From: Parachlamydiales bacterium
GTDB taxonomy: Bacteria; Chlamydiota; Chlamydiia; Chlamydiales; SM23-39
Assembly (NCBI GenBank): GCA_963800655.1
Contig: CAWDBT010000002.1
Location: 513,671-577,670, forward strand
Reading direction: 5' to 3'
DNA: 64,000 bases
Shown here: piece after piece, positions 1 to 58,034 of the stretch
How the letters are laid out: each line of letters begins with the position of its first letter
Position numbering within the stretch: the first letter of the stretch is position 1
Program-made: the position numbers and the translations under genes
Notes under the pieces: generated by a model
Told to the model about the DNA's origin: nothing
Databases searched by the model: none
Seen by the model: the letters and a program-made list of their open reading frames with translations, nothing else

Positions 1-1655
1 AAACAACGGCAGGACCATCGCATTTCTTTCTCTTAGAGATGGCGTCGTGCGCTACGACACTTCCATCTACGGGCTTCTTCCGACCCTCGCCCAGGCTCTC
101 AAGCGGAATCTCTCCAATATCCGCCAACTGCTCCAGCTCCATCAACATCTCAATGACGAAGAGCCCCGCATCGTCCGCGATAAAGAAATCCTGCTCGTCA
201 AGACAGCGCCTCTGCATATCCGCACCGTCTATGCCCGCGTCGTCGACTCGCTCCTGCCCCAAGGCTATCGACATACCAGCGCAAACGTCCTGGAACCGGA
301 CACCTATGCCTCCGGCGACATCTACGAGTTATACGGCTCCAGCAATCAAGTCCTCGACGACATTCCCCTCGAATTCTACACCCTCGAACCCCACCGCGAG
401 CACGTCTTCTTTTCCGATCGGGATCAACTCCAAACCTGTCTTGAAAACGCATCGTCCCTCTTCGAAGCATTCCGCACAGCTCCCGATCCCGGCCATCATC
501 TCGCCGCAGTCTTCGTCGTCAAAGGAACCCAACTCCAGCATCTCCAGCCATCCGATTGGATCGTCCGCGATCCTTACAAACACGAGTTCCCCGGCCTCGC
601 CAATCCCGCCCGCCAAGCGCTCATGGCGGAAAAATACATCGAGCACCAACCCTCGTATCCCTTTCTCAAAGCGATCCAAGACGGACTCATCACCTCCCAA
701 GGGATTCTTGCTCTGCCGCCATTTTCCCACACCCCTTCTCAAGCGGATGCTCCTCAACGATCAAGTCCTCCGATGCCTCAAACGGATCTATTTCCAGCAT
801 CCCTCCTGCTCCCACGACGACTTTTTCTCCCACGAAGATCGCTCCATGCTCCTCGATCTGGCCAAATTCGGCGTCCCCGTCTATTGGGTCGACGGCGGCA
901 TCGCAAAAAATCCTCCAATACGTCCTCAAGCCCGATAAGGATACCGGCCTTTTCGTTCCCCTTTCCCTCGTCGAAACATTTCGGAAAGCCACCGTGTTCG
1001 GCATCTACGGATCCAATCTCATCGAAGGCGGATTCGAACAGGAACTCAAAGCTTTCTTCGAAGGCGTCCTCGATCTGCGCGACCAGTCTCTCCCATCCGC
1101 TTCTCTCCCCCAACATCACCCCTCGCCCTTCTCACCGGAGGCGGACCCGGCGCCATGGCCATCGGCAATCGCGTCGCCAAATCCGTCGGCATTCTCTCCT
1201 GCGCCAATATCGTCGATTTCCGTCCCAAAGATAAAAGCGTCGTCAACGAACAAAAACAAAACGCCTATATCGACGCCAAAATGACCTACCGCCTCGATCG
1301 CCTCGTCGAAAGGCAAGCCGAGTTCTATCTCGACTTCCCCATCTTTCTCCCCGGCGGCATCGGAATGGATTTTGAATATACCCTCGAAGAAGTCCGCAGG
1401 AAAACCGGCTCTTCCCCCGCCAATCCCATTCTCCTCTTTGGAGAACCCGAGTATTGGAAGCGCAAAATCGCCTCCCGATTCCAACTCAACCGAGAAACCG
1501 GCACCATCAAAGGATCCGAGTGGGTCAGCAACTGCTTTTATTGCATCCGCAATGCCCGCCAGGGCATCTCCGTCATCCGACGCTTCTGTGAAAACACCCT
1601 TCCCATCGGCAAAAACGGCCCCATCTACGACGATGGTTTTTGCATCGTCGAATGA
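1..1655 (+). pseudogene. Large protein, 5'-truncated by the window edge, with a C-terminal LOG/TIGR00730-like (lysine-decarboxylase-like) nucleotide-binding domain; the sense reading switches frame at least 3 times
   Basis: Open from nt 2 with no upstream stop. Sense runs frame 2 (to about 720), then frame 3 (about 725-905, '...FGVPVYWVDGGI'), then frame 1 (about 905-1100, 'TVFGIYGSNLIEGGFEQELKAFFEGV'), then frame 3 (about 1105-1655, 'LLTGGGPGAMAIGNRVA ... FLPGGIGMDFEYTLEE'). GGGxGxM and PGGxG motifs are LOG-family hallmarks. Junctions lie at an A6 run (about 905) and a C5 run (about 1108). Confidence 0.6.
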
Positions 1656-1753
1656 GTCCAGCTTCACCCTATGGCCGAAAAAAATATTCCTAAATATTCA
1701 CAGACGAGTCCTGCCCCGATAAGAAGATCTTTCCCTCTCTTCCTCTCGGCTCT

Positions 1754-2956
1754 TTAAAACCCGTAATTGACGTTGAATTCGAAGTAATGCGTTCTTTCCT
1801 TCATGAACTGCCCTTCCAAAGAGTATCCATGGTGATAGCCCGCATACACTCTAAACTTTCGGCCGATCCCCGCCAGCTTGCTCAGCTCATAGCCTATCCG
1901 ATACGTTCCGTCGAAGTTCCAATCCAGAAACTGCATATTGCGGATATGCAATGCCAAAAACAACGAGCCGAATAATCGACTCGAGGGGAATTTGCTCCCT
2001 AGGAACCTCGCTTCCGTACCGTATTGAATGTACAGCGGCATCAGCTTAAACGTCGGATCGCTATGCACGATGACGCCCGGCCCCACGTACAAGCGAACTG
2101 CCTCCGTCGCTTGATAAGAAGTATAGAAATCGATCGCCTCGAAACTGGGATTGACCCTCTTTACATGCGGGTGGTGGACCATATATTCATCGCCCAAGTG
2201 GCTTGAAATATGATATCCCCTCAACCGGAAGGACCATTGGTTGATCGCATAAGTCACGGGAATCCCGCCGTAGAAGTCCGTATTGACCAGTTCCGCTTCC
2301 CATGAGCTCGTAGAAAAGTCGGGATCCATATTGAAAACCGACCAAATCCCGCCCTCGATCCCGATCTGCAAGTCTCCGTGCCATACATCCAGCCATCGAT
2401 AGATCGGAAAATCGTCTCCCAGCTCTACGTTGACCGACTTCGTCCCCATCACGTGGTCTCCGGCTCTCCACCCGAGCGTATAGCCGACCTGTCTTGGATC
2501 TGCGATGAGCGGCTGGAACAATTCGGTCATCTGGGGGAACCAGATCCCATTGATCTGAGGCCGCCGCACGTATTTCTCTCTCAGTTCTTCGTCTTCCGGC
2601 GGAACGCCGTTCAAGATGATGACCTCTTTGACTCCCGGGACGTCTTTGACAAAGGACTCGATACTATTCGCCGTCAGTTTATTTTTCGGCATATTGGCCA
2701 GCCAAACTTTTCGATCTTTGACCAATACGATGACGCGGTATTCCCCATAATGGGTATCGACCAAAGCCTGAATATATCCCTCGAAGTAGGGATCCGTGGC
2801 AGTTTCTGTAAAATCAGCTGGCAGGCTGTCCGACCGAGTCAAAACGATCGAGACTTCTTCTCTAGAACCTTGATCCTGAGGAAGTTCTTCCTGGGCGAAT
2901 AGAGCGTTCGCTGCGCATAGAATAGCCGAGAGGCGACCGGATTGTATTTTTCGCAT
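1754..2956 (-). CDS. Outer-membrane beta-barrel-like protein with N-terminal BON-like domain (possibly the chlamydial DUF1207 family)
   Basis: 400-aa ORF with signal-like N-terminus 'RLSAILCAANALFAQ'. BON-like segment 'VIVLVKDRKVWLANMP...VKDVPGVKEV'. Alternating amphipathic strands. Terminal aromatic 'NVNYGF', typical of OMP C-termini. The family name is from memory of size and taxon only. Confidence 0.6.
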   Translation of the reverse strand: MRKIQSGRLSAILCAANALFAQEELPQDQGSREEVSIVLTRSDSLPADFTETATDPYFEGYIQALVDTHYGEYRVIVLVKDRKVWLANMPKNKLTANSIESFVKDVPGVKEVIILNGVPPEDEELREKYVRRPQINGIWFPQMTELFQPLIADPRQVGYTLGWRAGDHVMGTKSVNVELGDDFPIYRWLDVWHGDLQIGIEGGIWSVFNMDPDFSTSSWEAELVNTDFYGGIPVTYAINQWSFRLRGYHISSHLGDEYMVHHPHVKRVNPSFEAIDFYTSYQATEAVRLYVGPGVIVHSDPTFKLMPLYIQYGTEARFLGSKFPSSRLFGSLFLALHIRNMQFLDWNFDGTYRIGYELSKLAGIGRKFRVYAGYHHGYSLEGQFMKERTHYFEFNVNYGF

Positions 2957-3166
2957 AGTAAACTCCTAAACTTTCTATATACAGCTCCTCTGATTGCATG
3001 CCAAGGTTTTCTTCGAACTTTTTATTTAATTCAAAACTATACGAGTCAATTTGAAAAAACTAACATTCATTTTAAGACAGATAAGATTAATCGAGCCTAC
3101 AACCCGAGCTTCGATCGATTCTTCTCATATTTCTGCGAAAAGAATCGACGAAGCCTTGTAAAACAT

Positions 3167-4123
3167 CTAGGCATCGATCTTTTGTTCGATCGGGGCGATA
3201 TAGACCCACTTCCCTTGAAAATCGATAATGACCCGATGCTCCATGAAAAACGGCATTCCTAGAATCGCATCAAAACGATGCGGTGTTTTTACAGGGAGAT
3301 GCTGGAAGATTTTTTTTCCAAGATTCAACCCTCCTATGCAGAAAGACTCAAATTCTGTTAAATTATCTGGGTTTGAAAAAATCTCTTCCGGAGATAGGTT
3401 TTCAGAATTCTCTACATTTAAAATATTTAAACTCGCTCCGGTATCGAGAAGACATTCTAATATCTTATCTTCAGTTTTCGCATAAATCTCGACAAATCCG
3501 TGATTGAGAAAAAGAGGTTCTTTTACAAATCCATCGATTGAACAACCCTGTTCGACCAGAGTTTGAAAGCTATCGCACACTACTATTTGAGAATTCGCTA
3601 AATCTAAAAAGAGACTCCCGGAAGAAAACAATCTCCAGCCGATAGATCCCATGTCTTCTGGAGGCTTTACAGTCTCGGTCTGTATAATGAGAGATTCTTT
3701 TCTTAAATCGTAAGATCTCTCCCAAAGGGTGACATTTCCAAACGTACCCTCTCCCATTTTTAGCTGAGGGATTCGATATACTTCGACAGGGTATCCGTTC
3801 CCCCTAAACCCGTATTTTATTTCAGAAGATACAAATGTTTTCGCCCGAACCCTTTCTATGGATTCTTTAAACAGAGATAAAGCTCCTTGGAATCCTAGAT
3901 CTAAAGCAACCAGGAAAGGTTTTCCCTCGATTTCGACTTCTACTTGAGGATGATTCGCCAGGGAAAATCCAGCGATCCGGATCGGGAAACAAAACCGATT
4001 CTGTTCTGATCGAAGGGAAGCTAGCTTCCCTTCGTCTTTATGCGATTTAGATTTAATAGCCCAAATACCACCCAAGATACAGAGGCCAAGAAAAAGCACG
4101 GAAAAATTCCGTTTTTTTTTCAT
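3167..4123 (-). CDS. Retropepsin-like (clan AA) aspartic protease, N-terminally membrane-anchored or secreted
   Basis: 'ILECLLDTGASLNILN' is a classic D-T-G-A active-site loop. An upstream degenerate lobe reads 'FLVALDLGFQGALSL'. Start chosen at 'MKKKRNFSVLFLGLCILGG' (nt 4123), directly after the stop of the upstream gene. AT-richer than the core. Confidence 0.65.
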   Translation of the reverse strand: MKKKRNFSVLFLGLCILGGIWAIKSKSHKDEGKLASLRSEQNRFCFPIRIAGFSLANHPQVEVEIEGKPFLVALDLGFQGALSLFKESIERVRAKTFVSSEIKYGFRGNGYPVEVYRIPQLKMGEGTFGNVTLWERSYDLRKESLIIQTETVKPPEDMGSIGWRLFSSGSLFLDLANSQIVVCDSFQTLVEQGCSIDGFVKEPLFLNHGFVEIYAKTEDKILECLLDTGASLNILNVENSENLSPEEIFSNPDNLTEFESFCIGGLNLGKKIFQHLPVKTPHRFDAILGMPFFMEHRVIIDFQGKWVYIAPIEQKIDA

Positions 4124-36545: not shown

Positions 36546-38398
36546 TCAATTTGCAGACACGCTCTTAGATATTCTCTTAGGCTTTGCTGTAAACGCGACT
36601 CCGTACGGCAGCATCAATACGGCTTCCTCGACTTGTTGATTCAAGCCCATTTTAAATCGAATCGAAAGCCCCGTTTCCTTTTTTACACCGAACGCATTCT
36701 CCCCGTTCGGAATCAGTTCATAGGTGGGCTGCCCTGGAATCACCGCGAAGAGAGACTCTCCCTTAAGGGCGATATCGACGGTATAGCCATATACTTCATA
36801 TACGCCTACGAAACGGGACAAATAGGAAGCGAGCTCGCTTTTTTCTTCGGGCTTTCTCTTGAAAACGATGTCGGGAACTTTCGGCTCGAAAGGAATATGC
36901 ATCTCTTCGATCGTCCCGCGTTCCTTGCTTTGAAACGAGATCTTAATCCCCTCGACGGGAAGGATGAGATCCTCCGAAGCCGATTCGATGGAAAACACGT
37001 CGTAATGCCAATGTTCGAGGCGGTAATCGATCCGGTTGAATTTCATCTCCAGCGAATCGCCGACGGCTTTGATTTGCACTTCTCCATATCCGGGATGGAA
37101 ATACGCGCCTTCATATTCGGAGAGCTCATGGGACGGATGGGTTCCCGTTTTGCGGTTTTGATGCTCCTCCGCTTTCTTCTGCGATCGCTCAACGGCGTTT
37201 TTCTCTGCGACCTGTTTTCCCTCGTTCAAAATATCCATCTGCGGAATGCCGAGGAGAGCGTCGAACACATGCAGCGCGAGCACGCGCGGCAGAACGGTCA
37301 GGTTGCTATTGCACAATGCGACGACTCCAAACTTTTCCCCGGCATGAGGGCGATGTGGGAGGTAAACCCGTCTATTCCCCCATCGTGGCTGACGTGATAG
37401 CGGCCCCGATATGTCTGCACATGCCACCCCAAGCCATAGGTGCCCACCTGCGCTTCCTTGCTGTCGAGGCATCCCCCTGCGACGATCTGAGGGGAATAGA
37501 TTTCGCTGAGCGTCGCTTTGCGGATGAGCGATGCGCCTCCCCACTCCCCTTCGCGGGTATGGAGCTGCACCCAGCGGCATAAATCGGATAGGTTCGAAAT
37601 CATCGATCCCGCAGGGCCAATCACGGATATATCGCGAAACGCCATGCGCTTCAAACAGCCTTGCTTGTTCAGGTAAGGAACCGCGTGGTCGTTCGACGCT
37701 TGCATCGCCTGTATGGAAAAGTGGGTGTGGGCCATTTGCAAGGGATGCAAAATCCTGCTCTGGACGATCTCTTCCCAGCTGGTCTTTGCGATCTTTTCCA
37801 TCGCCATCCCGGCTGCTAAAAACAGCAGGTTATTGTAGCAAAATCTCTCTCGAATCGCACACATCGGAGAAAGATATCGAAGCTTATAGAGCAGTTCTTT
37901 TCGGGTGAAAGAAGAGTTGTACCACACGAGATCGTGGCGAGCCATGCCGGAGCGGTTCGCCGCCAAATCGCGCAGCGTCAGGTTCTGCGTCGCATATGGA
38001 TCCGACAGGCGGAATTCGGGCATGATATCGATCACGGGCTGATCCCAATCCAAAAGCCCTTCGTCGACCATGCAACCCATGGCGAATGTCGTGAATGCCT
38101 TGGTGCAAGATCCGATTGGGAACAAAGTCTCCTCGGTCACGGACTTTTTCCCTTCGAGATCCCGATAGCCGAACCCTTGCGCGAAAACCACCTGGCCGTC
38201 GACGACGACTCCAATAGCCGCCCCCGGAACCAGAAAACTTTCGAGCGCTAGGGAGACTGCAGAAGGCAACTGCTGAAGCGATTCTCTCGCCCGCTCCGCT
38301 TGGGGAGTAAATCGCTGCGACAAATCAAAGGCGCAAAGAGGAAGCATTGCGCCGAGCGCCGCGATGCAAAAAATCAACGGCATTTTGTTCCGAATCAT
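36546..38398 (-). pseudogene. Class-C beta-lactamase/PBP-like serine hydrolase with a C-terminal lipocalin-like extension; one frame break
   Basis: N-terminal ORF (38398-37298) has the 'SCTK' SxxK motif in 'FPIGSCTKAFT'. Sense continues in ORF 37580-36546 ('GEKFGVVALCNSN...'). The junction is 'atgccggggaaaagtttgg' (C4/T4 runs at 37333-37340 on the plus strand). Confidence 0.75.
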
Positions 38399-49677: not shown

Positions 49678-50729
49678 GCGCCCCAAGGCCCGCCTTGCTC
49701 GAAATCCTGGAGGATGACTTCCTTAAGTCTGTCGCGGTCGAATTCCTCGATATTGAGCCAACGGAACAAGGGTTCTTTGCGAAACCAGGTGAACTGGCGC
49801 TTGGCATACTGGCGGCATGCCTTTTTGAATTTCGCCACAAAGAGTTCAAAATCGGCTTTGGTCTGGGGGCTTTCGAGATAGTCGAGGGCCTGTCGATAGC
49901 CAATGGCCTGGGATGCGGAAGGATTGCGGCAAAGACCTTCCTGTTCGAGCTTCTTGACCTCGTCCAAAAATCCGTCGCGAATCATTTGTTCGCAGCGCAA
50001 TTCGATGCGCGAATAGAGGCGCTCGCGGGGATAATAGATGAACCAGCACCTGAAATCGAATTCGCCTTCCTGGAGCTGGGAAGGCTTTGAAAACTCGCTG
50101 ACGCGCCTTTCGGATAAAGCCATGATTTCAAGCGCTCGAACGATCTTATGTCGATCGCGCTCGGAAATGGTGGCCGCATATTCGGGATCGAGCATCTGGA
50201 GTCTTTCGTAGAGGATCTCGGGGCCGAGCTCTCTCATTTGCCTTTCGAGCTGTTCGCGGACCTCGGGGACGGACGACGGGCCTGCAGGCGGGCCGTAGAG
50301 GAGCGAATGGATATAAAATCCCGATCCCCCGACGACGATGGGGACGTTGTCCCTAGCTGCAATGCCGTGGATCGCTTCTTTCGCATCGGCATGGAATTTG
50401 GCGACATTGCACAGCTCGCTCAAATCGCAGGTATCGATCAAATGATGGGCGATGAGAGCGCGTTCTTCGGCAGACGCTTTTGCGGTTCCGATGTCCATGC
50501 CTCGATATACCTGCATGGAATCGGCGGAGACGATTTCTCCTCCGATGGCTTGCGCGAGGAGAATCGAAAGGCTGGTTTTACCCGATGCGGTCGGGCCGGC
50601 GATGACAATGACGCGTTTTTTTTTCTGCCCGAGCACAATCGGCTGTCTTTGCGCAAGAAACTCCACCCGGGAGCCAGATTTGGACTCCTTGAGGGCTGTG
50701 CCCGAGGATCTGGGATTAAACTCCGTCAT
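49674..50729 (-). CDS. miaA: tRNA dimethylallyltransferase
   Basis: 'VIVIAGPTASGKTSLSILLA...GEIVSADSMQVYRGMDIGTAK'. Confidence 0.95.
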   Translation of the reverse strand: MTEFNPRSSGTALKESKSGSRVEFLAQRQPIVLGQKKKRVIVIAGPTASGKTSLSILLAQAIGGEIVSADSMQVYRGMDIGTAKASAEERALIAHHLIDTCDLSELCNVAKFHADAKEAIHGIAARDNVPIVVGGSGFYIHSLLYGPPAGPSSVPEVREQLERQMRELGPEILYERLQMLDPEYAATISERDRHKIVRALEIMALSERRVSEFSKPSQLQEGEFDFRCWFIYYPRERLYSRIELRCEQMIRDGFLDEVKKLEQEGLCRNPSASQAIGYRQALDYLESPQTKADFELFVAKFKKACRQYAKRQFTWFRKEPLFRWLNIEEFDRDRLKEVILQDFEQGGPWGA

Positions 50730-51066
50730 GCTGCAAGGCGTCTTGTTCTGTCTCGAAAATAAGCAAAATATGGTTCAAACCCGCCGCCTCGATGACTTTC
50801 TTTACATCTTGGGAAACGCCAAAAATAAGCAGCTTCCCGTTTTGCCTATGGAGTTTTGTCGAAATGGCGAGCAGGTTTCTTAAAACAGCGGCGTGCAATT
50901 CCTCGACTCCCGAAAAATCGAGCAACAAAGAACGGGCTCCTTCTTTAAGGCATGCGTCGATTTTTTGTTCGAGCAGAGGGACATGGGCTGAATCGAGCTG
51001 CCCTTTAAGGCGAAATACGAACCTTCGATCGACTTCTTCGACGGCGATGCTAAAAGTCGGGCGCAT
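50716..51066 (-). CDS. STAS-domain anti-sigma-factor antagonist-like protein (RsbV/SpoIIAA family)
   Basis: 116 aa. 'LKGQLDSAHVPLLEQKI...LLLDFSGVEELHAAVLRNLL...GKLLIFGVSQDVKKVIEAAGL'. Confidence 0.75.
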   Translation of the reverse strand: MRPTFSIAVEEVDRRFVFRLKGQLDSAHVPLLEQKIDACLKEGARSLLLDFSGVEELHAAVLRNLLAISTKLHRQNGKLLIFGVSQDVKKVIEAAGLNHILLIFETEQDALQHDGV

Positions 51067-51069
51067 CGA

Positions 51070-51327
51070 TCAAACCCCTTGGATTTGGGGAATTTCAGGC
51101 TGCATCACTTCGAGATGCACGCGCCGGCCCAACCGCGCGCCGATCGTCATGGCCAAAGTGCGCAAGGAACGGATGACATGCCCTTTGCGCCCGACGACTT
51201 TGCCGACATCTTCGGGAGCGACTCGGATCTCGATGAGGGTTCCCCCCTGGCCTTCGATCAACCGGACGTCGACCTGCTCGGGCAGATTCACCATGTTTTT
51301 TACTAGATACGCTATGAATTCATCCAT
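51070..51327 (-). CDS. KH-domain RNA-binding protein (UPF0109/YlqC-like)
   Basis: 'VRLIEGQGGTLIEIRVAPEDVGKVVGRKGHVIRSLRTL' contains the GxxG KH motif. Confidence 0.85.
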   Translation of the reverse strand: MDEFIAYLVKNMVNLPEQVDVRLIEGQGGTLIEIRVAPEDVGKVVGRKGHVIRSLRTLAMTIGARLGRRVHLEVMQPEIPQIQGV

Positions 51328-51378
51328 TCTTCACTCCTTCGAAAGACGCGAGATCCTTGTAAACTTTTTGTTTATTTA

Positions 51379-51417
51379 AGAGGGTGTCGACGAAGCCTTG
51401 CTTTGTACACATCCTCT
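51379..51417. repeat. Diverged copy of the palindromic REP/MITE-like family
   Basis: 'agagggtgtcgacgaagccttgctttgtacacatcctct'. Confidence 0.6.
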
Positions 51418-51485
51418 AAGAACTGTTTAAAAACAAAATGAACTATTTTATTTTTAGACAGCTAGAAGGCCAAAATCTGACCCCT

Positions 51486-51835
51486 TCACCTTTGAGGATA
51501 TTGGATCGAACCATTGAATGCAATTTCTTGGGTCATCCAATCGAGATAAGATTGGCTCGCCTGCTCGATGGGGGTTTGCAAGATTTCGGGAACTTCATAG
51601 CTTCCATTTTCGAGAATGCGCCGACAAATTTCGGAAAAATGGGATTTCTCCGTTTTGAAAATCACCTTGCATTCCCGTTCTTTTTTGAGTTTTCCCTTCC
51701 AATGGAAAAGGGATCGGATCCCGGGGATAGCCGATGACAGGCGACGAGTCGTTTTTCGAGCAATTGAGCGGAGATCTTTTCGGCTTCCTTGAAATTCCCG
51801 CAGGTCCACAAAACTAAAACGGGCTGGCAGGTCAT
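51486..51835 (-). pseudogene. cutA: CutA divalent-cation tolerance protein; one frame break
   Basis: 'MTCQPVLVLWTCGNFKEAEKISAQLLEKRLVACHRLS' switches frame at 'ctatccccgggatcc' (about 51715-51730) to 'IPGIRSLFHWKGKL...KTEKSHF...YEVPEIL...YLDWM'. The start overlaps the ftsQ stop (ATGA). Confidence 0.8.
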
Positions 51836-52758
51836 GGGGATTCTTTTGAATTTTGTACAAAAGCGAGCTGCGGAATCCGAAGGTCGATGATCCGGGGCGC
51901 GAACCGAACGGGACTCGTTTCGCATGAGAGGCGATGGATCTGCTTTTGATAATCTTCGAGCATGGCCTTGCGCAAGGAGAGGAAATTGCCGAGCTGTCGC
52001 GCATAATCTTTTTGGGGAAGCCGAAGGATCTTGGGGAACAGGCAAACGGTTTCTTTGTCTTGATCGCGAAAGACGGCTTCCTCTTCGGTGAACAGGACGA
52101 TTTCCCTTTGTCCATAGCTGCTGGAAAAGGCATTGGAGACGTCGATCCTCTTGATGCGAAGCCCTTCGCGCCAGGGGGCGTCTTTCAAAACCTGGAGGAT
52201 TTCAAAAGCGAGCCTGAGGTGTTTGTTCTGCACGGGGGTTTGCCAAGATCCTCCCTTGCGGCCCAGGCCATCGGCCTCGGCGCCGAAGGGAGGGAGGCCG
52301 AGATAGATCTCGGGCAAATGCTTGGGGGTAAAGAAAGGAGCGATGGGAAAGAGATAGCCGTCGCGGTCGAGGCCGATGTTTTCATAATCGACGAGCCAAG
52401 CGATGGGTTTGCGCACGGTGTAATCGACATAGATGGTAGCTGGAGGAACCCGGGCGACTTTGGCCTCGGAAATGAGCGGGCAGGCGAGGAGTTTGCGGCG
52501 GGCTTCTTTGAGATCGAATGCGTAAAGCATCGCGGGCTTGTCGGAGGAAAGACCGAGAAGTTCGGCGAGATAGGAGGTTTTGAGCGCCTCTTTTTCCGGC
52601 CCAGTCTGAACGATGGCCGCGATTTTATAGCGCTCGTCGGAAAGACGCCTCGAATGCCAGGCGATCCAAGCCATATAGACGGCAGCGGCGGCCAGAAGCG
52701 TTCCGCCGGTGATGCCGGCCAAACACATCCAAGCTTGCCGATACGTCCATCGGCCCAT
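51832..52758 (-). CDS. ftsQ: FtsQ-like cell-division protein (TM anchor + POTRA)
   Basis: TM 'MCLAGITGGTLLAAAAVYMAWIAW'. POTRA-like 'YKIAAIVQTGPEKEALKTSYLAELLGL...ARVPPATIYVDYTVRKPIAWL'. The start ATG overlaps the ddl stop by 1 nt. Confidence 0.75.
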   Translation of the reverse strand: MGRWTYRQAWMCLAGITGGTLLAAAAVYMAWIAWHSRRLSDERYKIAAIVQTGPEKEALKTSYLAELLGLSSDKPAMLYAFDLKEARRKLLACPLISEAKVARVPPATIYVDYTVRKPIAWLVDYENIGLDRDGYLFPIAPFFTPKHLPEIYLGLPPFGAEADGLGRKGGSWQTPVQNKHLRLAFEILQVLKDAPWREGLRIKRIDVSNAFSSSYGQREIVLFTEEEAVFRDQDKETVCLFPKILRLPQKDYARQLGNFLSLRKAMLEDYQKQIHRLSCETSPVRFAPRIIDLRIPQLAFVQNSKESP

Positions 52759-55149
52759 TATTTCCCCCGAATCTTCGCCAAGCACCTATGGCGGTGCAGG
52801 CTTAAGCAAATGAGTTCATGCCACAAATCGGTTTGAGATAATCCGGCAGCCTCCCACATTTTAGGATACAGGCTGATCTTTGTAAATCCGGGAAGCGGAT
52901 TGATCTCGTTGAGCCAGTAATGTCCTTTTCGATCGAGGAAGAAATCGACTCTGGCGAGTCCTTTGCAACAGCAGGCCGCATACATGCTGCAGGCGAGATC
53001 TTTGCCTATCTGGGCTTGTTGCTCGGTCAGATCGGCAGGAGTCTTCAGTCCCAAAGGACTGAGGCCCATATTTCCTTTCAAAATCGTAGAACTGGCCGTG
53101 ATTGAGGATTTCCCCGGGCGCTCCGACGCGGATTTCATCGTTGCCGAGAACGGCGAACTCGATCTGGCGGCCGTCGACTTCTTTTTCGATCAGGATTTGA
53201 TGGTCGTATTGGAAAGCCAGTTCGACGGCGTCGTCCAAAAATTCTTTCTTGAGAACGCGGCTCACCCCGATGCTCGATCCGAGATGAACGGGCTTGACCC
53301 AAAGGGGATAATCGAACTGGGACGAGGCGAACTCCTTAATGGACTCTTTCCTCTTTTCCAATCGGACCGAGGAGCATTCGACATAGGGCGCAGTCGGCAC
53401 GCCGTTCATGACCGCCACATGTTTCGTCCATGCTTTCTGCATGCAGATCGCGGCGGCGCGGTAATCGCAGCCGACATACGGAAGATCGAGCGCATCGAGA
53501 AGTCCTTGCACCATGCCGTCTTCGCCTTGAGGTCCATGCAAAACCGGAACGACGACATCGCATGAAAGCAGATTTTTCAAAATCTCTCCGGAGAGCTTGG
53601 CTGATCGCTGGGAATCCGTTTCGTGTTTTTCCAACCGCGCCAGGGCGTCATCCCCAAAGATCCAATGGCCGTCCTTGGTAAGCCGAACGCCTTCACATTG
53701 TAAATGTCTGGATCGAGAGAACGGAAAATATTGCGGGCGGACAAAAGTGAGATCGCGTGTTCGGCGGATGTTCCCCCAAAGAGAACGCCGATAGTGAGCT
53801 TCGGCAACAGCTCGGACAGTTTCGCCGGAATATTTCTGGCGGCGGCGGTGATATCGCCGGCTCCGAATGCGACTGCGACATCTCCGCATTCCAAAAATCG
53901 GCTGACCTTCTCTCGATCCTGTCATGGAAACCAATGGACATGCGCGCCGCGCCTTTCTGCAAGAGCTGATAGATTTTCTCGGTGGTCGCGCCTTCGATCG
54001 CTGTTTCTCCTGCTGCGTAAATATCGGTGAAGATGACTTCGTCGGCTTCCTGAAGCTACTGGCGAATTCCTCGATCAGATCTCTGATGCGCGAATAGCGA
54101 TGGGGTTGGACAATGGCGACCAATCTCTTTTCTCGGAACCGATCTCTCATGGCTTTGAAGCGTGGGGCGAATTTCCGTCGGGTGATGGCCATAATCGTCG
54201 AACACTTCGATATTCTGGACGACAGCCCACTTTTTCGAGCCTTCGCGCTCGCTCCGGCAAAAGAAAGAAAAGCTCTGCGAATCGCCGCTTCCTCGATCCC
54301 AGAGAGAGGGCGAGTCCGAATACGGCGGAGCCATTCAAGGCATTGTGGCGGCCGAAGAGAGCCAGTTCGATCGCCTTGTACGAGACTCCTCGATATCGAA
54401 GATCGAAGCGGACTCCTCGATCGTGCAGCATAGGATTGAATCGAGAGATCGGCCTCGTGGGAAAATCCGTAAGAGACGCCTTTGGGATTGATTCGGCGAG
54501 CATAGGATCGTCGAGGCACCAAAACAAGTGTTCGGGATACATCGGCTTGGTTGAAAAATGTCCGGAATCCCTCCTTGAGCCTTTCTTCGGTTTTCCAGTA
54601 ATTCATGTGTTCTTTTTCGAAGTTCGTCACAATGGCGCCGAAAGCCGGGGTCTTTAAAAAAGAGCCGTCGCTTTCATCGGCTTCCGACGCAAAATAGGGC
54701 CCTTTGCCGGAACGCCCGTTGGTATTGCAGGATCGGACGATGCCTCCGACGACAAAAGAAGGATCGGCTCCGGCTTCGAGCAGCACTGCAGCGAGCAGAG
54801 CGCTGGTGGTCGTCTTGCCATGCGTGCCGGTGACGAGCAGGGGCTTTTGAGAGCCGATAGAGAATGTGCAAGAGATCAGAGCGATGGAGCTGGCGCAAAG
54901 ATGTTTTTTCTGGCTTCCTGCAGTTCGACATTGTTTTCCCCGATGTCGGTACTGAAGACGACGACACTTGCCTGTTCGAGGGTTTCCTTGGCATGGCCGA
55001 TATGAACCCGGCGCTCCATCTTTCGCGAGATTCTGGAGCAAGGGGCTGTCTTTCATATCGCTTCCCTGTACCTTTGCCCCGCGCTCGAGCAAGATCCGGG
55101 CCAACGCGCTCATGCCGATTCCGCCCATGCCGATGAAATGATAGGTCAT
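52758..55149 (-). pseudogene. murC/ddl: MurC-Ddl fusion (UDP-MurNAc:L-Ala ligase + D-Ala:D-Ala ligase); sense is spread over all three frames (at least 15 switches)
   Basis: MurC blocks: '[17 protein letters not shown]', '[29 protein letters not shown]', '[16 protein letters not shown]', '[10 protein letters not shown]', '[11 protein letters not shown]' and '[12 protein letters not shown]'. Ddl blocks: '[19 protein letters not shown]', '[19 protein letters not shown]', '[16 protein letters not shown]' and '[27 protein letters not shown]'. These blocks alternate among ORFs 52861-55509, 54147-54542, 54056-54334, 53693-53962, 53577-53894 and 52758-53138. Confidence 0.8.
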
Positions 55150-56213
55150 TTCGTATTCCTTTAGATTGAGAATTTGTTGTCGCAATCGTTTGCCTTCCCC
55201 GCGCTTCCTCGAGAAAGCTCTGAAGTGATTTTTTAGCAAGGGCGCATCGTGGATGAGAGCCTGGAATCGCTTCGGAAAGCCTTTGGGATGAGCCCATTCC
55301 TCGAGGAGGATTTTTCCCCCTTTGATTTGCTTTGCGAGAAATTCGGCGTTGATGCGCTGATGGTCGTCGGCTGCAAACGGAAATGGGATCAGAAGCGCAG
55401 GAATGCAGTAGCGGATGAGCTCAGCGGTCGTGCCCGCTCCGGATCTGCAGATGGCGAAATCGGCTGCGGCATAGAGTCGGTGCATGGCGGGTTCAATCCC
55501 CTCACCCAAGCTTGCACTCCTGCTTTTTCATAGCGCTCTTTGACTTCGGCAGCGGATTCATCCTTGCCGGCGAGATGAATAGCCTGCGCATGGAGAGGAA
55601 GAACAGCTGGGATCGCCTCGTTGAGAAAGGATGCTCCCTGAGAGCCCCCGAATACCAAAAAGGTCGGCCGATCCGGATCGAGGCCCAGTTCCAGCCGCAT
55701 GCTCCGTCGCTCGGCTTGGCCGAGGGATTTCCACGGCAATAGCGGGAACGAGTTTCAAATGGCGCGGCGCTCCTTTAAAAGAAAATTGCGCAAAGACCGT
55801 TTTCGCGCTGTAAGAGAAAAGAGTCGGTTCACCTTGCCCATGAGGCAATTTGCTTCGAAGAGGGCGATATTTTGGCGCATAAGCCAAGCTGCCGCAAGAA
55901 CGGGAAAACTGTGAAAGCTCCCGAATCCGACGACGAGATCGGGGCGGAACTTGCGGATCGCCGAGATGCTCTGGCAGATTCCGCGGAGATTCATTTTGAA
56001 AAACATCCATAATCCCCTGAGCGAATATCGCAAAGGAGCCGCTGAAATCGATTGAAACGGAAATGCATCCTGTTTGAAAAAGGCGGATGTTTCCAGGCGA
56101 TGCCCCGCGAAGAAGATTTCGGCGTGGGACTGCAGTTCATGGGCGAGTTGCTGAGCGGGGAGCAGGTGGCCGCCGCTTCCGCCGACGGCGATCAAGATTT
56201 TGGTGCGGTTCAT
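55150..56213 (-). pseudogene. murG: MurG (UDP-GlcNAc:lipid I transferase); three frame switches and no stop before murC in the final frame
   Basis: 'ILIAVGGSGGHLLPA' is in ORF 55755-56213. Then 'KTVFAQFSFKGAPRHLKLVP' (ORF 55558-56010). Then 'LVFGGSQGASFLNEAIP' (ORF 55389-55739). Then '[23 protein letters not shown]' (ORF 52861-55509). Confidence 0.8.
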
Positions 56214-57307
56214 ACGAGGGCTCGTTTAGGGGATTTGGCGATATCGAGAAGTAGAAACAAGGCTATGATATTCATGATGAGAGAGCTTCCTCCCTGGGAA
56301 AAAAACGGGAGAGTCGTCCCTTTGCTAGGGAGCAATCCCGAGACGATCCCGAGATTTAAAAACGCCTGGAGCGCGATCAAAAACGTCAGGACGGAAGCCA
56401 GAAAAAACGCCCCTCGATCGGACGATTGGATCGCGACCGCAAATCCGGCGTAGGTAAACCCCATATACAAGGCGATCAGCCCCAGGATTCCGACGAACCC
56501 GAATTCCTCTGCGAAAATCGCCGCGATGTAATCGCTGCGCGCTTCGGGGAGGTAGTTGAGTTTTTGGAGGCTTTCTCCAAGCCCTCGTCCGAGGAGCTGC
56601 CCCGATCCCGCGGCGATTTTGGCCTGGTGCGGCTGATGCCCTTTTCCCCTGAGATCGAGTTCGGGATGCAAATAAATGCGGATGCGATCCGGCACATGCG
56701 GCATCTGCGAGGCCGCTCCAATGCCGAGGCAAACCATAGTCAAAAACGGCAGCGCCCAATACGTCCAGCGGATTTTCATCAGGATGAAAAGGGCGAAAAG
56801 ACACCCGAGGATGATCGCGGTCGTTCCATTGTCCGGTTCCAATAAGATGAGACCCATTGGACATGCGATCAAAGCCAACACTTTTAAAAACGGCTTTAAT
56901 TGGATCGGTTCCCTTTGTTGGAGGAACCAGCGGATGAAATACATGGGGATGAGAATTTTCGCACATTCGGAAGGCTGGAACGTAAATCCCCCGATGCCGA
57001 TCCAACGCCTCGCTCCATTGATCGTCTGACCAAAAGGCGGGATGAAAACGGCGATGAGCAGCACGGCGGCGATTGCAAGCAAGGGAAAGCTCCTCTCGAT
57101 CAGCGCGCGATACCCGCATCGCCTCACGGCAAAGCCGAGGGCGACGCCGGCTCCGCCATAGGCGATCTGCTTGAGCAAAGCCGCATGGGTATTGGCGTCG
57201 AGCGAGCGGTCGATGATCTCGGCCGCAGTCGTGTTGAACACCATTAAAAGCCCGAGCGCAAAGAGCAGCGCTACGCAAATGACGAGGCAAATAGAAGCTC
57301 TATTCAT
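56210..57307 (-). CDS. ftsW: SEDS-family lipid II flippase/glycosyltransferase FtsW/RodA
   Basis: Intact 365-aa ORF with 'RWIGIGGFTFQPSECAKI', 'SDYIAAIFAEEFGFVG' and 'GLLPSKGTTLPFFSQGGSS'. ATGA overlaps at both ends. Confidence 0.9.
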   Translation of the reverse strand: MNRASICLVICVALLFALGLLMVFNTTAAEIIDRSLDANTHAALLKQIAYGGAGVALGFAVRRCGYRALIERSFPLLAIAAVLLIAVFIPPFGQTINGARRWIGIGGFTFQPSECAKILIPMYFIRWFLQQREPIQLKPFLKVLALIACPMGLILLEPDNGTTAIILGCLFALFILMKIRWTYWALPFLTMVCLGIGAASQMPHVPDRIRIYLHPELDLRGKGHQPHQAKIAAGSGQLLGRGLGESLQKLNYLPEARSDYIAAIFAEEFGFVGILGLIALYMGFTYAGFAVAIQSSDRGAFFLASVLTFLIALQAFLNLGIVSGLLPSKGTTLPFFSQGGSSLIMNIIALFLLLDIAKSPKRALV

Positions 57308-58034
57308 CTGACGCGTAAACGGTCTCCTGGTTTTAGACGGCGGGCTTTTTCTTCGTTGAGTCCATTCAATTTAAGCAGTTCGTCTACTTTCATCCGATGC
57401 TTCATCGCGATCGTCCAAGGGTTGTCTCCGACTTTAACCGTATAATATTCGAGATCGCGCTGAGCGGTCTGTTTTTCAGAAGAAACGGATTTGGCTTTCG
57501 CCGTTTGGGAGAATGATTTTTCTCCGGGCAGCTTCAAAACCTGGCCGATCCTCAGAAAACTGTTCGGCAATTGGTTGAGGCGACGGAGTTCTTCGACTGT
57601 GGTGTGGTGGGCTTTGGCAATTTTCTCAAGCGTATCCCCTTTTTTGACCGACACCTCGGCTAAAGATGCGGCGACTGCGGGAATCGGAGGCGGAGCGAGG
57701 ACTAAAGGGGCGGATTCAGAGGGATGGCCGTATCCTGCTGGGCTAATGGAGGGAGCTGATGGACGATATCGGAAGACGCCGTTTGTGCAATCGGCGGAAG
57801 AACGTCTGGCCGGCGCCATCGAACGATATCGGCTGCTGCAGAGCAAGGCTTTCCTGGGGCGGCGATCCCTCGGGAATTTCATTGAACAGCGGCTTATGCA
57901 TCCGTTGGCATCGCCTGTGAAAAATCGACGCTTTTCGGCGACTGTTCTTCGCGATGAATCGCAGCTATGAAAAGCAGAGCCAACAGGCCTGCATTCATCA
58001 ATACGGCAATCAAGATCGTTTTTTTTCGATCCAT
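57304..58034 (-). pseudogene. Membrane-anchored double-LysM protein in the NlpD position of the chlamydial dcw cluster; the N-terminal half is frame-broken
   Basis: The anchor 'MDRKKTILIAVLMNAGLLALLFIAAI...' starts at the ATG at 58034 and hits a stop after 46 aa. The two LysM repeats, 'VSVKKGDTLEKIAKAHHTTVEELRRLNQL' and 'YYTVKVGDNPWTIAMKHRMKVDELLKLNGL', are in ORF 57304-58095. No M23 domain is visible. Confidence 0.65.

Follow-up and report, generated by a model that had tools for sequence, protein, structure and literature searches.

Frame breaks in murG and murC/ddl of a Parachlamydiales genome almost certainly reflect local consensus errors

The chlamydial dcw cluster, as known from murC/ddl of Chlamydia trachomatis, encodes a bifunctional MurC-Ddl fusion protein. 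We analyzed a 64,000-nt stretch of DNA from a Parachlamydiales bacterium (contig CAWDBT010000002.1; hereafter the window) that contains a cluster of this type. All of its dcw genes are on the minus strand, in the chlamydial order murF-mraY-murD-LysM-ftsW-murG-murC/ddl-ftsQ, with overlapping stop and start codons. The arrangement is collinear with that of two related loci from metagenome-assembled genomes (MAGs; L001 and L002) and with that of L161, a Logan contig of run ERR10755939. As expected, murC/ddl lies between murG and ftsQ, with stop/start overlaps of ATGA (murG/murC) and TAATG (ddl/ftsQ). The gene encodes the five Mur ligase and D-Ala-D-Ala ligase domains of the chlamydial fusion (Mur_ligase N, M and C; Dala_Dala_lig N and C). 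Unlike chlamydial MurC-Ddl, however, it forms one open reading frame (ORF) only after 26 bases are added or removed.

Gene calls in MAGs can be frameshifted by indels in the long-read consensus, a recognised problem (PMC9262707). The window resembles long-read or low-coverage MAGs with such errors in that 1-nt indels split conserved genes, in patches, on a very long contig. It is also similar in that several unrelated genes are affected and an independent assembly of the same strain lacks the lesions. It differs in that its indels are not concentrated in homopolymers and its main patch also shows real allelic divergence. With pseudogenes formed by reductive decay the window shares broken frames in conserved genes and a preserved operon layout. 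The window is unlike such pseudogenes in the sizes of its indels, the balance of insertions and deletions, the lack of stops and the excess of synonymous changes, and its lesions are not reproduced in independent data (L161).

Frame changes within and outside the dcw cluster

Frame changes were located by frameshift-aware protein-to-DNA alignment, using orthologues from the chlamydial MAG loci L001 and L002 as references. Those in murC/ddl are near 55011, 54908, 54859, 54543, 54499, 54423, 54298, 54249, 54224, 54157, 54050, 53964, 53680 and 53043, and an A>T change has created an in-frame TGA in one sense segment (Table 1). In murG, changes were found near 55810, 55746 and 55498 with L001 as the reference, and only the last of these was resolved with L002. 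Six references agreed on the changes in the LysM gene (near 57897, 57810-57867 and 57715-57730). There are no frame changes in murF, mraY, murD, ftsW or ftsQ. Comparison of the DNA with L161 reveals more lesions than the protein alignments do, since at some of them the frame is restored a few codons later.

Table 1. Coordinates of genes, error patches and a spurious ORF in the window
Feature	Position (nt)	Strand	Remarks
Patch A	1..1655	+	C-terminal ~550 codons of a ~705-aa chlamydial "Rossmann-fold nucleotide-binding" protein; four +1-nt frameshifts
ftsQ	51832..52758	-	Intact; one mismatch to L161, at 52,664
Patch B, main patch of errors and divergence	52664..55812	-	3' two thirds of murG, all of murC/ddl, first ftsQ codons; blastn of L161 against the window
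murC/ddl fusion gene	52758..55149	-	14 net frame changes, 26 indel bases (DNA comparison with L161), TGA at 53,924
Spurious 882-aa ORF (P0114)	52861..55509	-	One frame through MurG C-terminus, MurC and Ddl
murG	55146..56213	-	3 net frame changes, 9 indel bases (DNA comparison with L161), all downstream of 55,812
ftsW	56210..57307	-	Intact, between patches B and C; L161 covers only 56,210-56,540 and is identical there
LysM (NlpD-like) gene	57304..58034	-	True start 58,034; 3 frameshifts in N-terminal half; C-terminal LysM half intact
Patch C	57715..57900	-	Three 1-nt indels in LysM gene; flanking Logan contigs stop at 56,540 and 58,022
murD, mraY (59,341-60,549), murF	58010..61885	-	All intact; alignment and Logan contig L163

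A first-pass annotation, made from the sequence alone, had described much of this pattern. It proposed at least 15 frame changes in murC/ddl (we find 14 net changes and one TGA), three in murG (the number found with L001) and at least two in the N-terminal half of the LysM gene (we find three). Its junctions in murC/ddl and murG lie within 10-50 nt of ours, and the genes that it considered unbroken (ftsW, murD, mraY and murF) are so, as is ftsQ. The TGA at 53,924 contradicts its statement that the sense segments lack premature stops. Of the start/stop overlaps that it listed, ddl/ftsQ holds, but murD and the LysM gene overlap by ~25 nt and not by ATGA.

As deposited, the window does not encode the five MurC-Ddl domains in one polypeptide of ~800 aa, given the 14 frame changes. 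After repair of the frames, the sequence encodes a normal MurC-Ddl with ~90% identity to the intact 797-aa protein P0001. MurC/Ddl is a single ORF at 51 of the 52 related loci with full coverage.

The breaks had been described as confined to murC/ddl, murG and the LysM gene. This is correct within the dcw cluster, but lesions of the same type occur in functionally unrelated genes. The gene for the ~705-aa conserved protein has four +1 insertions (near 707, 900, 1081-1087 and 1109-1115), a beta-lactamase/DUF3471 gene has a single break at 37,338, and two bases present in L161 are deleted at 43,706 and 43,713. In addition, cutA has a frameshift near 51,735 that is common to both assemblies. Thus, artefact status is not demonstrable for every frameshift in the window. 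A 3-periodic Markov model of coding frame also flags frame switches at 1-1,700 and 52.7-58 kb. This model was trained on GC-rich genes and is unreliable in the low-GC region at 6-21 kb, so it was not used as an inventory.

Comparison with an independent assembly

In L161, murG (354 aa) and murC/ddl (797 aa) are each a single ORF with every expected Pfam domain, including all five of murC/ddl. This contig aligns to window positions 56,540-42,760 (blastn, with differences listed per site), with 113 mismatches and 37 indel bases in total. Inside 52,664-55,812 there are 110 mismatches and 35 indel bases, against 3 mismatches and 2 indel bases in the other 10.6 kb. The 5' 400 nt of murG are identical in the two sequences. 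Two further Logan contigs match 58,022-64,000 and 1,550-3,212 with 8 transitions and no indels (5 of the transitions in the former, L163). Across 18 kb of flanking sequence, identity between the Logan assembly and the window is 99.8-99.97% (~99.97% for L161). Divergence in these clean flanks is thus 0.03-0.2%, and 10 of the 11 differences are transitions. Indel density is ~1.1% inside 52,664-55,812 and ~0.01% in the 18.3 kb compared outside, a clustering far beyond chance. The Logan contigs break at 1,550, 56,540 and 58,022, positions that adjoin patches A and C.

The proteins that we looked up in the whole contig index are present only in run ERR10755939 and in the 719-kb source contig, which makes it very probable that the run and the MAG derive from one sample. 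However, the run could hold a sister strain rather than the population of the MAG itself. Exact-protein look-ups gave no match for FtsW, a 535-aa ORF, MurD, the 422-aa MraY ORF or P0114, and a match was found for MraY once its start was set at 60,549. Scans of genome and metagenome contig collections with FtsW yielded relatives at no more than 71% identity, which served as protein references but are unsuited to DNA comparison. With the repaired LysM protein as query, no near-identical copy from another source was retrieved. The frameshifts at 1-1,115 and those of patch C lie outside the Logan contigs, so the independent check applies to patch B. A literature text search found no paper that mentions ERR10755939.

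Given that murG and murC/ddl are intact in this independent assembly of essentially the same strain, comparison of the sequences indicates that their breaks are almost certainly local consensus errors rather than gene loss. The single open frames that, according to the first-pass annotation, would argue for an assembly artefact are restored for both genes in L161. This runs against its suggestion of gene-specific decay of the cytoplasmic lipid II steps. Its other suggestion, a locally poor assembly, agrees with the open frames of L161, the error-like indels and the involvement of unrelated genes.

Indels and substitutions in the main patch

Relative to L161, insertions in the window add up to 18 bases and deletions to 19. 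Every event is of a single nucleotide except for one GG deletion and one TA insertion at 55,811-55,812, and none is a deletion of 3 nt or more. Thirteen of the 19 deletions remove a non-repeated base, and 7 of the 18 insertions are beside the same base (7.5 expected), so there is no link to homopolymers. In this respect the indels would be atypical of the best-known nanopore consensus errors. The order of insertions and deletions (11 runs against 13.5 expected, worked by hand) is not significant. We also considered that insertions might arise where both alleles of a SNP were written into the consensus, but 10 of 18 are beside the transition partner, where 8.1 are expected, and there is no signal. 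In real bacterial pseudogenes, deletions average ~19 nt, and those of 1 nt account for only 131 of 396 (PMC6054270). The broad size range of such decay, with deletions that outweigh insertions in length, is not seen in the window, where events are 1-2 nt. The indel spectrum is error-like: single-nucleotide, about equal in insertions and deletions, and independent of context.

The substitutions have a different character. We found 66 of 106 at codon position 3, and 59 of 106 are synonymous, where 31.5 +/- 4.4 are expected from the same mutation spectrum (0 of 2000 simulations reached 59). At most ~45 changes are non-synonymous (overall dN/dS ~0.36), and substitutions created one stop where five are expected. 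Where amino acids differ, most outgroups side with L161 at 11 sites and with the window at 8, and at several conserved columns the outgroup residue is in the window and not in L161. Neutral substitution, as expected of a pseudogene, is thus not seen: synonymous changes are in excess and the differences are symmetric against the outgroups. Taken from L161 to the window, the substitutions favour GC-to-AT changes, 30 of them C>T. The synonymous bias and the outgroup symmetry indicate that patch B is a real divergent murC/ddl allele overlaid by poor consensus. The two alleles differ by 3.5% over the patch and by ~6% in its core. Because the differences have been filtered by purifying selection, a tract of homologous recombination at murC/ddl in an otherwise clonal background is a probable source.

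Weighing the explanations

We assign a probability of about 0.9 to a patchy consensus indel artefact over a functional dcw operon, with the main patch on a divergent allele. To judge by its length, the source contig (719 kb), from an uncultured environmental chlamydia, is probably the product of a long-read metagenome assembly. The dcw cluster, from murF to ftsQ, would be normal and functional in the organism, and single-base indels left uncorrected in the deposited consensus at three patches (1-1,115; 52,664-55,812; 57,715-57,900) would disrupt reading frames on paper only. The largest patch probably coincides with a segment where the population carries two murC/ddl alleles. There, the assembler may have built the consensus from minor-allele reads that were few or mixed, which could explain why polishing would have failed. 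The first-pass annotation found a uniform error model unsatisfying, and this was apt: the errors are patchy, the main patch is on a different allele, and two patches are beside k-mer assembly breaks. Recruitment of reads from a second chlamydial species into the consensus is less likely, as the more conserved mraY and ftsW are clean.

It is very unlikely that one strain or subpopulation has undergone real, very recent pseudogenisation of murC/ddl, murG and the LysM gene while a near-clonal sister strain has them intact. The lesions are present in the deposited sequence and disrupt frames relative to functional orthologues, patch B is an allele of its own and not a noisy copy of L161, the GC-to-AT bias would suit decay, and cutA has a genuine-looking frameshift nearby. 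However, chlamydial division requires synthesis of peptidoglycan precursors. Moreover, 35 indel bases stand against a single stop and no more than ~45 non-synonymous changes, the excess of synonymous changes leaves no sign of a neutral phase, and like lesions occur in unrelated genes. The small and balanced indels are unlike those of real pseudogenes (PMC6054270), at the edge of patch B (55,400-55,812) there are three indel events, of 4 bases in all, but no substitutions, and almost all relatives have a single MurC/Ddl ORF. L161, near-clonal in the flanks, does not reproduce the lesions in murG and murC/ddl. It is slightly less probable still that the indels are real on a minor haplotype, and that murC/ddl, murG and the LysM/NlpD-like gene have only just been lost from a subpopulation whose near-clonal siblings retain them. 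Were this so, we would be observing a chlamydia in the act of giving up lipid II synthesis in the cytoplasm. Loss of murC/ddl and murG, if real, would bear directly on the need for peptidoglycan precursors in chlamydial division, but the evidence indicates that the loss is not real.

Pure sequencing noise on the same allele, in a stretch of single-read quality where the substitutions are errors too, is improbable to a similar degree as pseudogenisation. Mismatches and indels do share one 3-kb stretch, and a dN/dS of ~0.36 leaves room for some substitution errors, including one that made a stop. Yet third-position and synonymous changes are strongly over-represented, and outgroup residues are found in the window where L161 lacks them. 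Thus, most substitutions are taken to be real. Decoding in vivo, by programmed ribosomal frameshifting, transcriptional slippage or RNA editing, has a negligible probability. It would account for off-frame stretches that lack stops and so give one 882-aa ORF, but more than 25 sites would be needed in one gene, the indel sites are mostly at unique bases and lack slippery or homopolymer context, and a plain intact gene is present in the same strain (L161).

The 882-aa ORF is deposited as P0114 from the source contig (719,272 nt). Off-frame stops are scarce throughout the genome (1 per 44-89 codons), and an ORF of this length is therefore a coincidence of roughly 1%. Because of this scarcity, we rejected the ORF as a sign of selection for an open frame. 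The deposited products of the broken frames are this spurious protein and a mis-started LysM protein (P0242), and automated calls of pseudogenes or pathway completeness on this MAG would wrongly score lipid II synthesis as lost. Clusters of frameshifts on long contigs can also flag strain-variable segments. Long off-frame ORFs also occur over intact genes, as ftsW has one of 321 aa.

Frame changes in the division and cell-wall cluster and beyond it

The window encodes a chlamydial division and cell-wall (dcw) cluster on the minus strand at 51.8-61.9 kb. Frame changes were located by a custom protein-to-DNA alignment that tolerates frame shifts, using orthologues from two complete collinear clusters of related chlamydial MAGs (L001 and L002) as references. 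These came from an FtsW search of GTDB with one genome for each species, which yielded no relative with more than 71% amino-acid identity. We identified 14 frame changes in murC/ddl, at positions concordant for both references (apparent sign +1 nt in nine cases, -1 nt in five), and a single in-frame TGA. Three were found in murG against L001 (the more distant L002 resolves one, near 55,495) and three in the LysM gene, the latter reproduced with six further references. This alignment to orthologues identified none in murF, mraY, murD, ftsW or ftsQ. The frame changes claimed for the three genes in the first-pass annotation are thus confirmed, and the junctions that it lists lie no more than a few tens of bases from our positions.

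When the frame is followed, the sense segments of murC/ddl encode a normal MurC-Ddl with all of the familiar motifs. A single-ORF MurC/Ddl is present in 51 of the 52 related loci with full coverage. The sole exception is L079 (JAJREF010000002.1, Rhabdochlamydiaceae LVE1205-5), in which MurC/Ddl is split over two frames; its contig has a name of the form 'contig_NNNN', which we take to be typical of a long-read assembler. Another related locus, L003 (JAZKAZ010000124.1), has ftsQ immediately after a 480-aa MurC, without a Ddl fusion at the locus.

Features of the window
Feature	Position	Strand	Remarks
First window gene	1-1,655	plus	C-terminal part of ~705-aa chlamydial protein; four +1 insertions
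Serine hydrolase gene	36,570-38,398	minus	Beta-lactamase (PF00144) + DUF3471; one break at ~37,338
cutA	51,486-51,835	minus	Cluster end, after ftsQ
ftsQ	51,832-52,758	minus	
murC/ddl	52,758-55,149	minus	
murG	55,146-56,213	minus	
ftsW	56,210-57,307	minus	
LysM/NlpD-like gene	57,304-58,034	minus	
murD	58,010-59,332	minus	
mraY	59,341-60,549	minus	
murF	60,530-61,885	minus	
UCH-domain gene	62,062-64,000	plus	663-aa protein, eukaryote-type ubiquitin C-terminal hydrolase domain (PF00443 UCH); runs off window end; L163 168-2,159

The proposed specificity for lipid II genes is not borne out, as frameshifts also occur in the first window gene, the serine hydrolase gene, a second hydrolase gene (43,706/43,713) and cutA. 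The ~705-aa protein is conserved across chlamydiae (70-74% identity; 'predicted Rossmann-fold nucleotide-binding'), with a weak Lysine_decarbox/LOG-like match at its C-terminus. The insertions in its gene are at ~707, 900, 1,081-1,087 and 1,109-1,115, and its sense segments share 73-85% identity with homologues. The break in the serine hydrolase gene lies in the context CCGGGGAAAAG and splits it into two overlapping ORFs; the homologues are single proteins of ~605-611 aa. Relative to L161, a contig of the independent assembly described below, the window is short of two single bases at 43,706 and 43,713, at the 3' end of the gene for a PAF-AH/PETase-like hydrolase. The stop is moved, so that the ORF extends to 43,597 in the window, compared to a gene end ~110 nt earlier in L161; either version may be the right one. 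In cutA, one G is missing between GCCTGT and CATCGG when the gene is set against CutA from related loci, which gives its sole shift (-1, at ~51,735). Because the same DNA is present in L161, with two ORFs (57 and 59 aa) called there, the lesion may represent a genuine small pseudogene or a shared systematic error.

An independent assembly and a second murC/ddl allele

A search of a 5.8-billion-protein collection with the frame-repaired MurC/Ddl returned two notable matches, the window's own ORF (P0114) and P0001, an intact 797-aa MurC-Ddl that is 90% identical to the query and derives from the Logan assembly of run ERR10755939. Each looked-up protein has exactly two carriers in the contig index, this run and a source contig of the 0.2-1 Mb class; thus, ERR10755939 is very probably from the same sample as the MAG. 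The 17 kb contig with P0001 (L161) is collinear with the window in all its genes: the end of ftsW, murG (intact, 354 aa), the intact murC/ddl, ftsQ, cutA and ten others. The first-pass annotation had taken restoration of single open frames by high-coverage reads or resequencing as the mark of an assembly artefact; the comparison with L161, in which murG and murC/ddl are open, is close to that test.

L161 aligns in one piece to window positions 56,540-42,760, with 113 mismatches and 37 indel bases. Within 52,664-55,812 (patch B, comprising murG and murC/ddl sequence) are 110 of the mismatches and 35 of the indel bases, leaving 3 mismatches and 2 deleted bases in the other 10.6 kb. Two further contigs of the run differ from the window by transitions and no indels (five in L163 over 58,022-64,000 and three in L162 over 1,550-3,212).

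Inside murC/ddl there are 106 mismatches (59 synonymous, 46 non-synonymous and one stop-creating), 66 of them at third codon positions. When the same twelve-type mutation spectrum was redistributed at random over murC/ddl in 2,000 simulations, the expectation was 5 stops and 31.5 +/- 4.4 synonymous changes; no simulation reached 59. Polarisation of the amino-acid differences against 59 homologues placed the majority residue in L161 at 11 sites, in the window at 8 and in neither at 24, with 2 versus 2 in conserved columns. Most of the murC/ddl substitutions are therefore real and, given the synonymous excess and the symmetric outgroup polarity, patch B of the window is a second, selection-filtered allele. 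The synonymous excess contradicts pure noise on the L161 allele.

The divergent allele spans ~52,664-55,390 (dN/dS near 0.36), with flanks that are 99.97% identical; its core (53.5-55.0 kb) is ~6% different, compared to 99.8-99.97% identity otherwise in the genome. Changes from L161 to the window show a GC-to-AT excess (30 are C>T). The patch suggests a homologous-recombination tract, a strain bubble or haplotypes that co-exist in this environmental chlamydia. The boundaries of allele divergence are ~400 nt off those of the indel zone on each side, and patch B is two overlapping phenomena, real allelic divergence and poor consensus.

Origin of the indels

The indel bases relative to L161 are made up of 18 inserted and 19 deleted ones. 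All events are of 1 nt except for a GG deletion and, at 55,811-55,812, a two-base insertion (TA). Because several indels mutually cancel within 15-50 nt, the protein alignment sees just 14 + 3 net shifts. A non-repeated base was removed in 13 of the 19 deletions, and 7 of the 18 insertions adjoin the same base (7.5 expected at random). The indels lack homopolymer association, which does not point to any one sequencing platform.

The indels of patch B look like errors, and we conclude that the feature is an assembly artefact atop a real but ordinary allelic difference. The first-pass annotation had offered a locally poor assembly as one of two readings, and this was right, given the error-like indels and the open murG and murC/ddl of L161. 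Its other reading, recent gene-specific decay of the cytoplasmic lipid II steps by real strain-specific pseudogenisation, is very improbable. Patches A (1-1,115) and C (57,715-57,900, in the LysM gene) are outside the coverage of the independent copy (L162 stops at 1,550, beyond the four insertions of the ~705-aa protein gene), which leaves some room for decay. However, the indel spectrum, the selection signature and the unrelated genes also affected all contradict it. In 151 curated bacterial pseudogenes, all genuine, 396 deletions remove 7,421 nt in total; 131 of the 396 are of 1 nt, with deletions of 2 nt and of 3 nt each at one third of that frequency (PMC6054270). By a rough, cross-taxon calculation, the probability that ~18 deletions are all of 2 nt or less under that spectrum is near 0.44^18. 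The upstream edge of patch B (55,400-55,812) has 4 indel bases (3 events) and no substitutions, which mutational decay does not produce. Recoding of the frame changes is contradicted by the contexts of the indel sites, as well as by a gene that is intact in the same strain.

Frameshifted gene calls are well known to arise from indels in long-read consensus sequences (PMC9262707). The source, a very long contig of an uncultured organism, is probably a long-read MAG. Local strain heterogeneity is indicated at the patches by the second allele in B and by breaks in the run's k-mer assembly near A (at 1,550) and on both sides of C (56,540 and 58,022). The reads behind the patch consensus may have been few or mixed and from a minor haplotype, and polishing would fail there as a result. 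A test of one such route, in which the two alleles of a SNP are both copied into the consensus and appear as insertions, gave no signal.

Deposited chimeric proteins and compositional features

The longest ORF in the cluster region (882 aa; 52,861-55,509) encodes recognisable MurG, MurC and Ddl stretches that alternate with arginine/serine-rich nonsense, the expected outcome of repeated frame changes. It is a coincidence (estimated chance of such an ORF ~1%), favoured by the low off-frame stop density of the genome. This ORF is on record in NCBI and ENA, from a 719,272-nt contig, as the deposited protein P0114; P0242, the mis-started LysM protein (253 aa), is deposited there too. With domain matches to Glyco_tran_28_C, Mur_ligase and Dala_Dala_lig, P0114 could be misread as a novel MurG-MurC-Ddl fusion. 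A warning on deposited chimeric proteins and a note of a strain-variable locus are useful outputs of this analysis.

Plus-strand GC skew is positive only in the 8-kb stretch at 50,000-58,000 and negative in the rest of the window. Among the co-oriented dcw genes, GC skew at third codon positions ranges between +0.21 in murF and -0.35 in ftsQ, a gradient without a match in the orthologous L001 cluster. Low-GC stretches (34-45%) occur at ~6,000-31,000 and 62,000-64,000 in a window of otherwise 50-56% GC, and much of 6-21 kb was scored non-coding by a coding model trained on GC-rich genes. These stretches could be a foreign island or a gene class of different codon usage. The UCH-domain gene lies upstream of murF and is divergent from it; its product is probably a deubiquitinase effector directed at the host.
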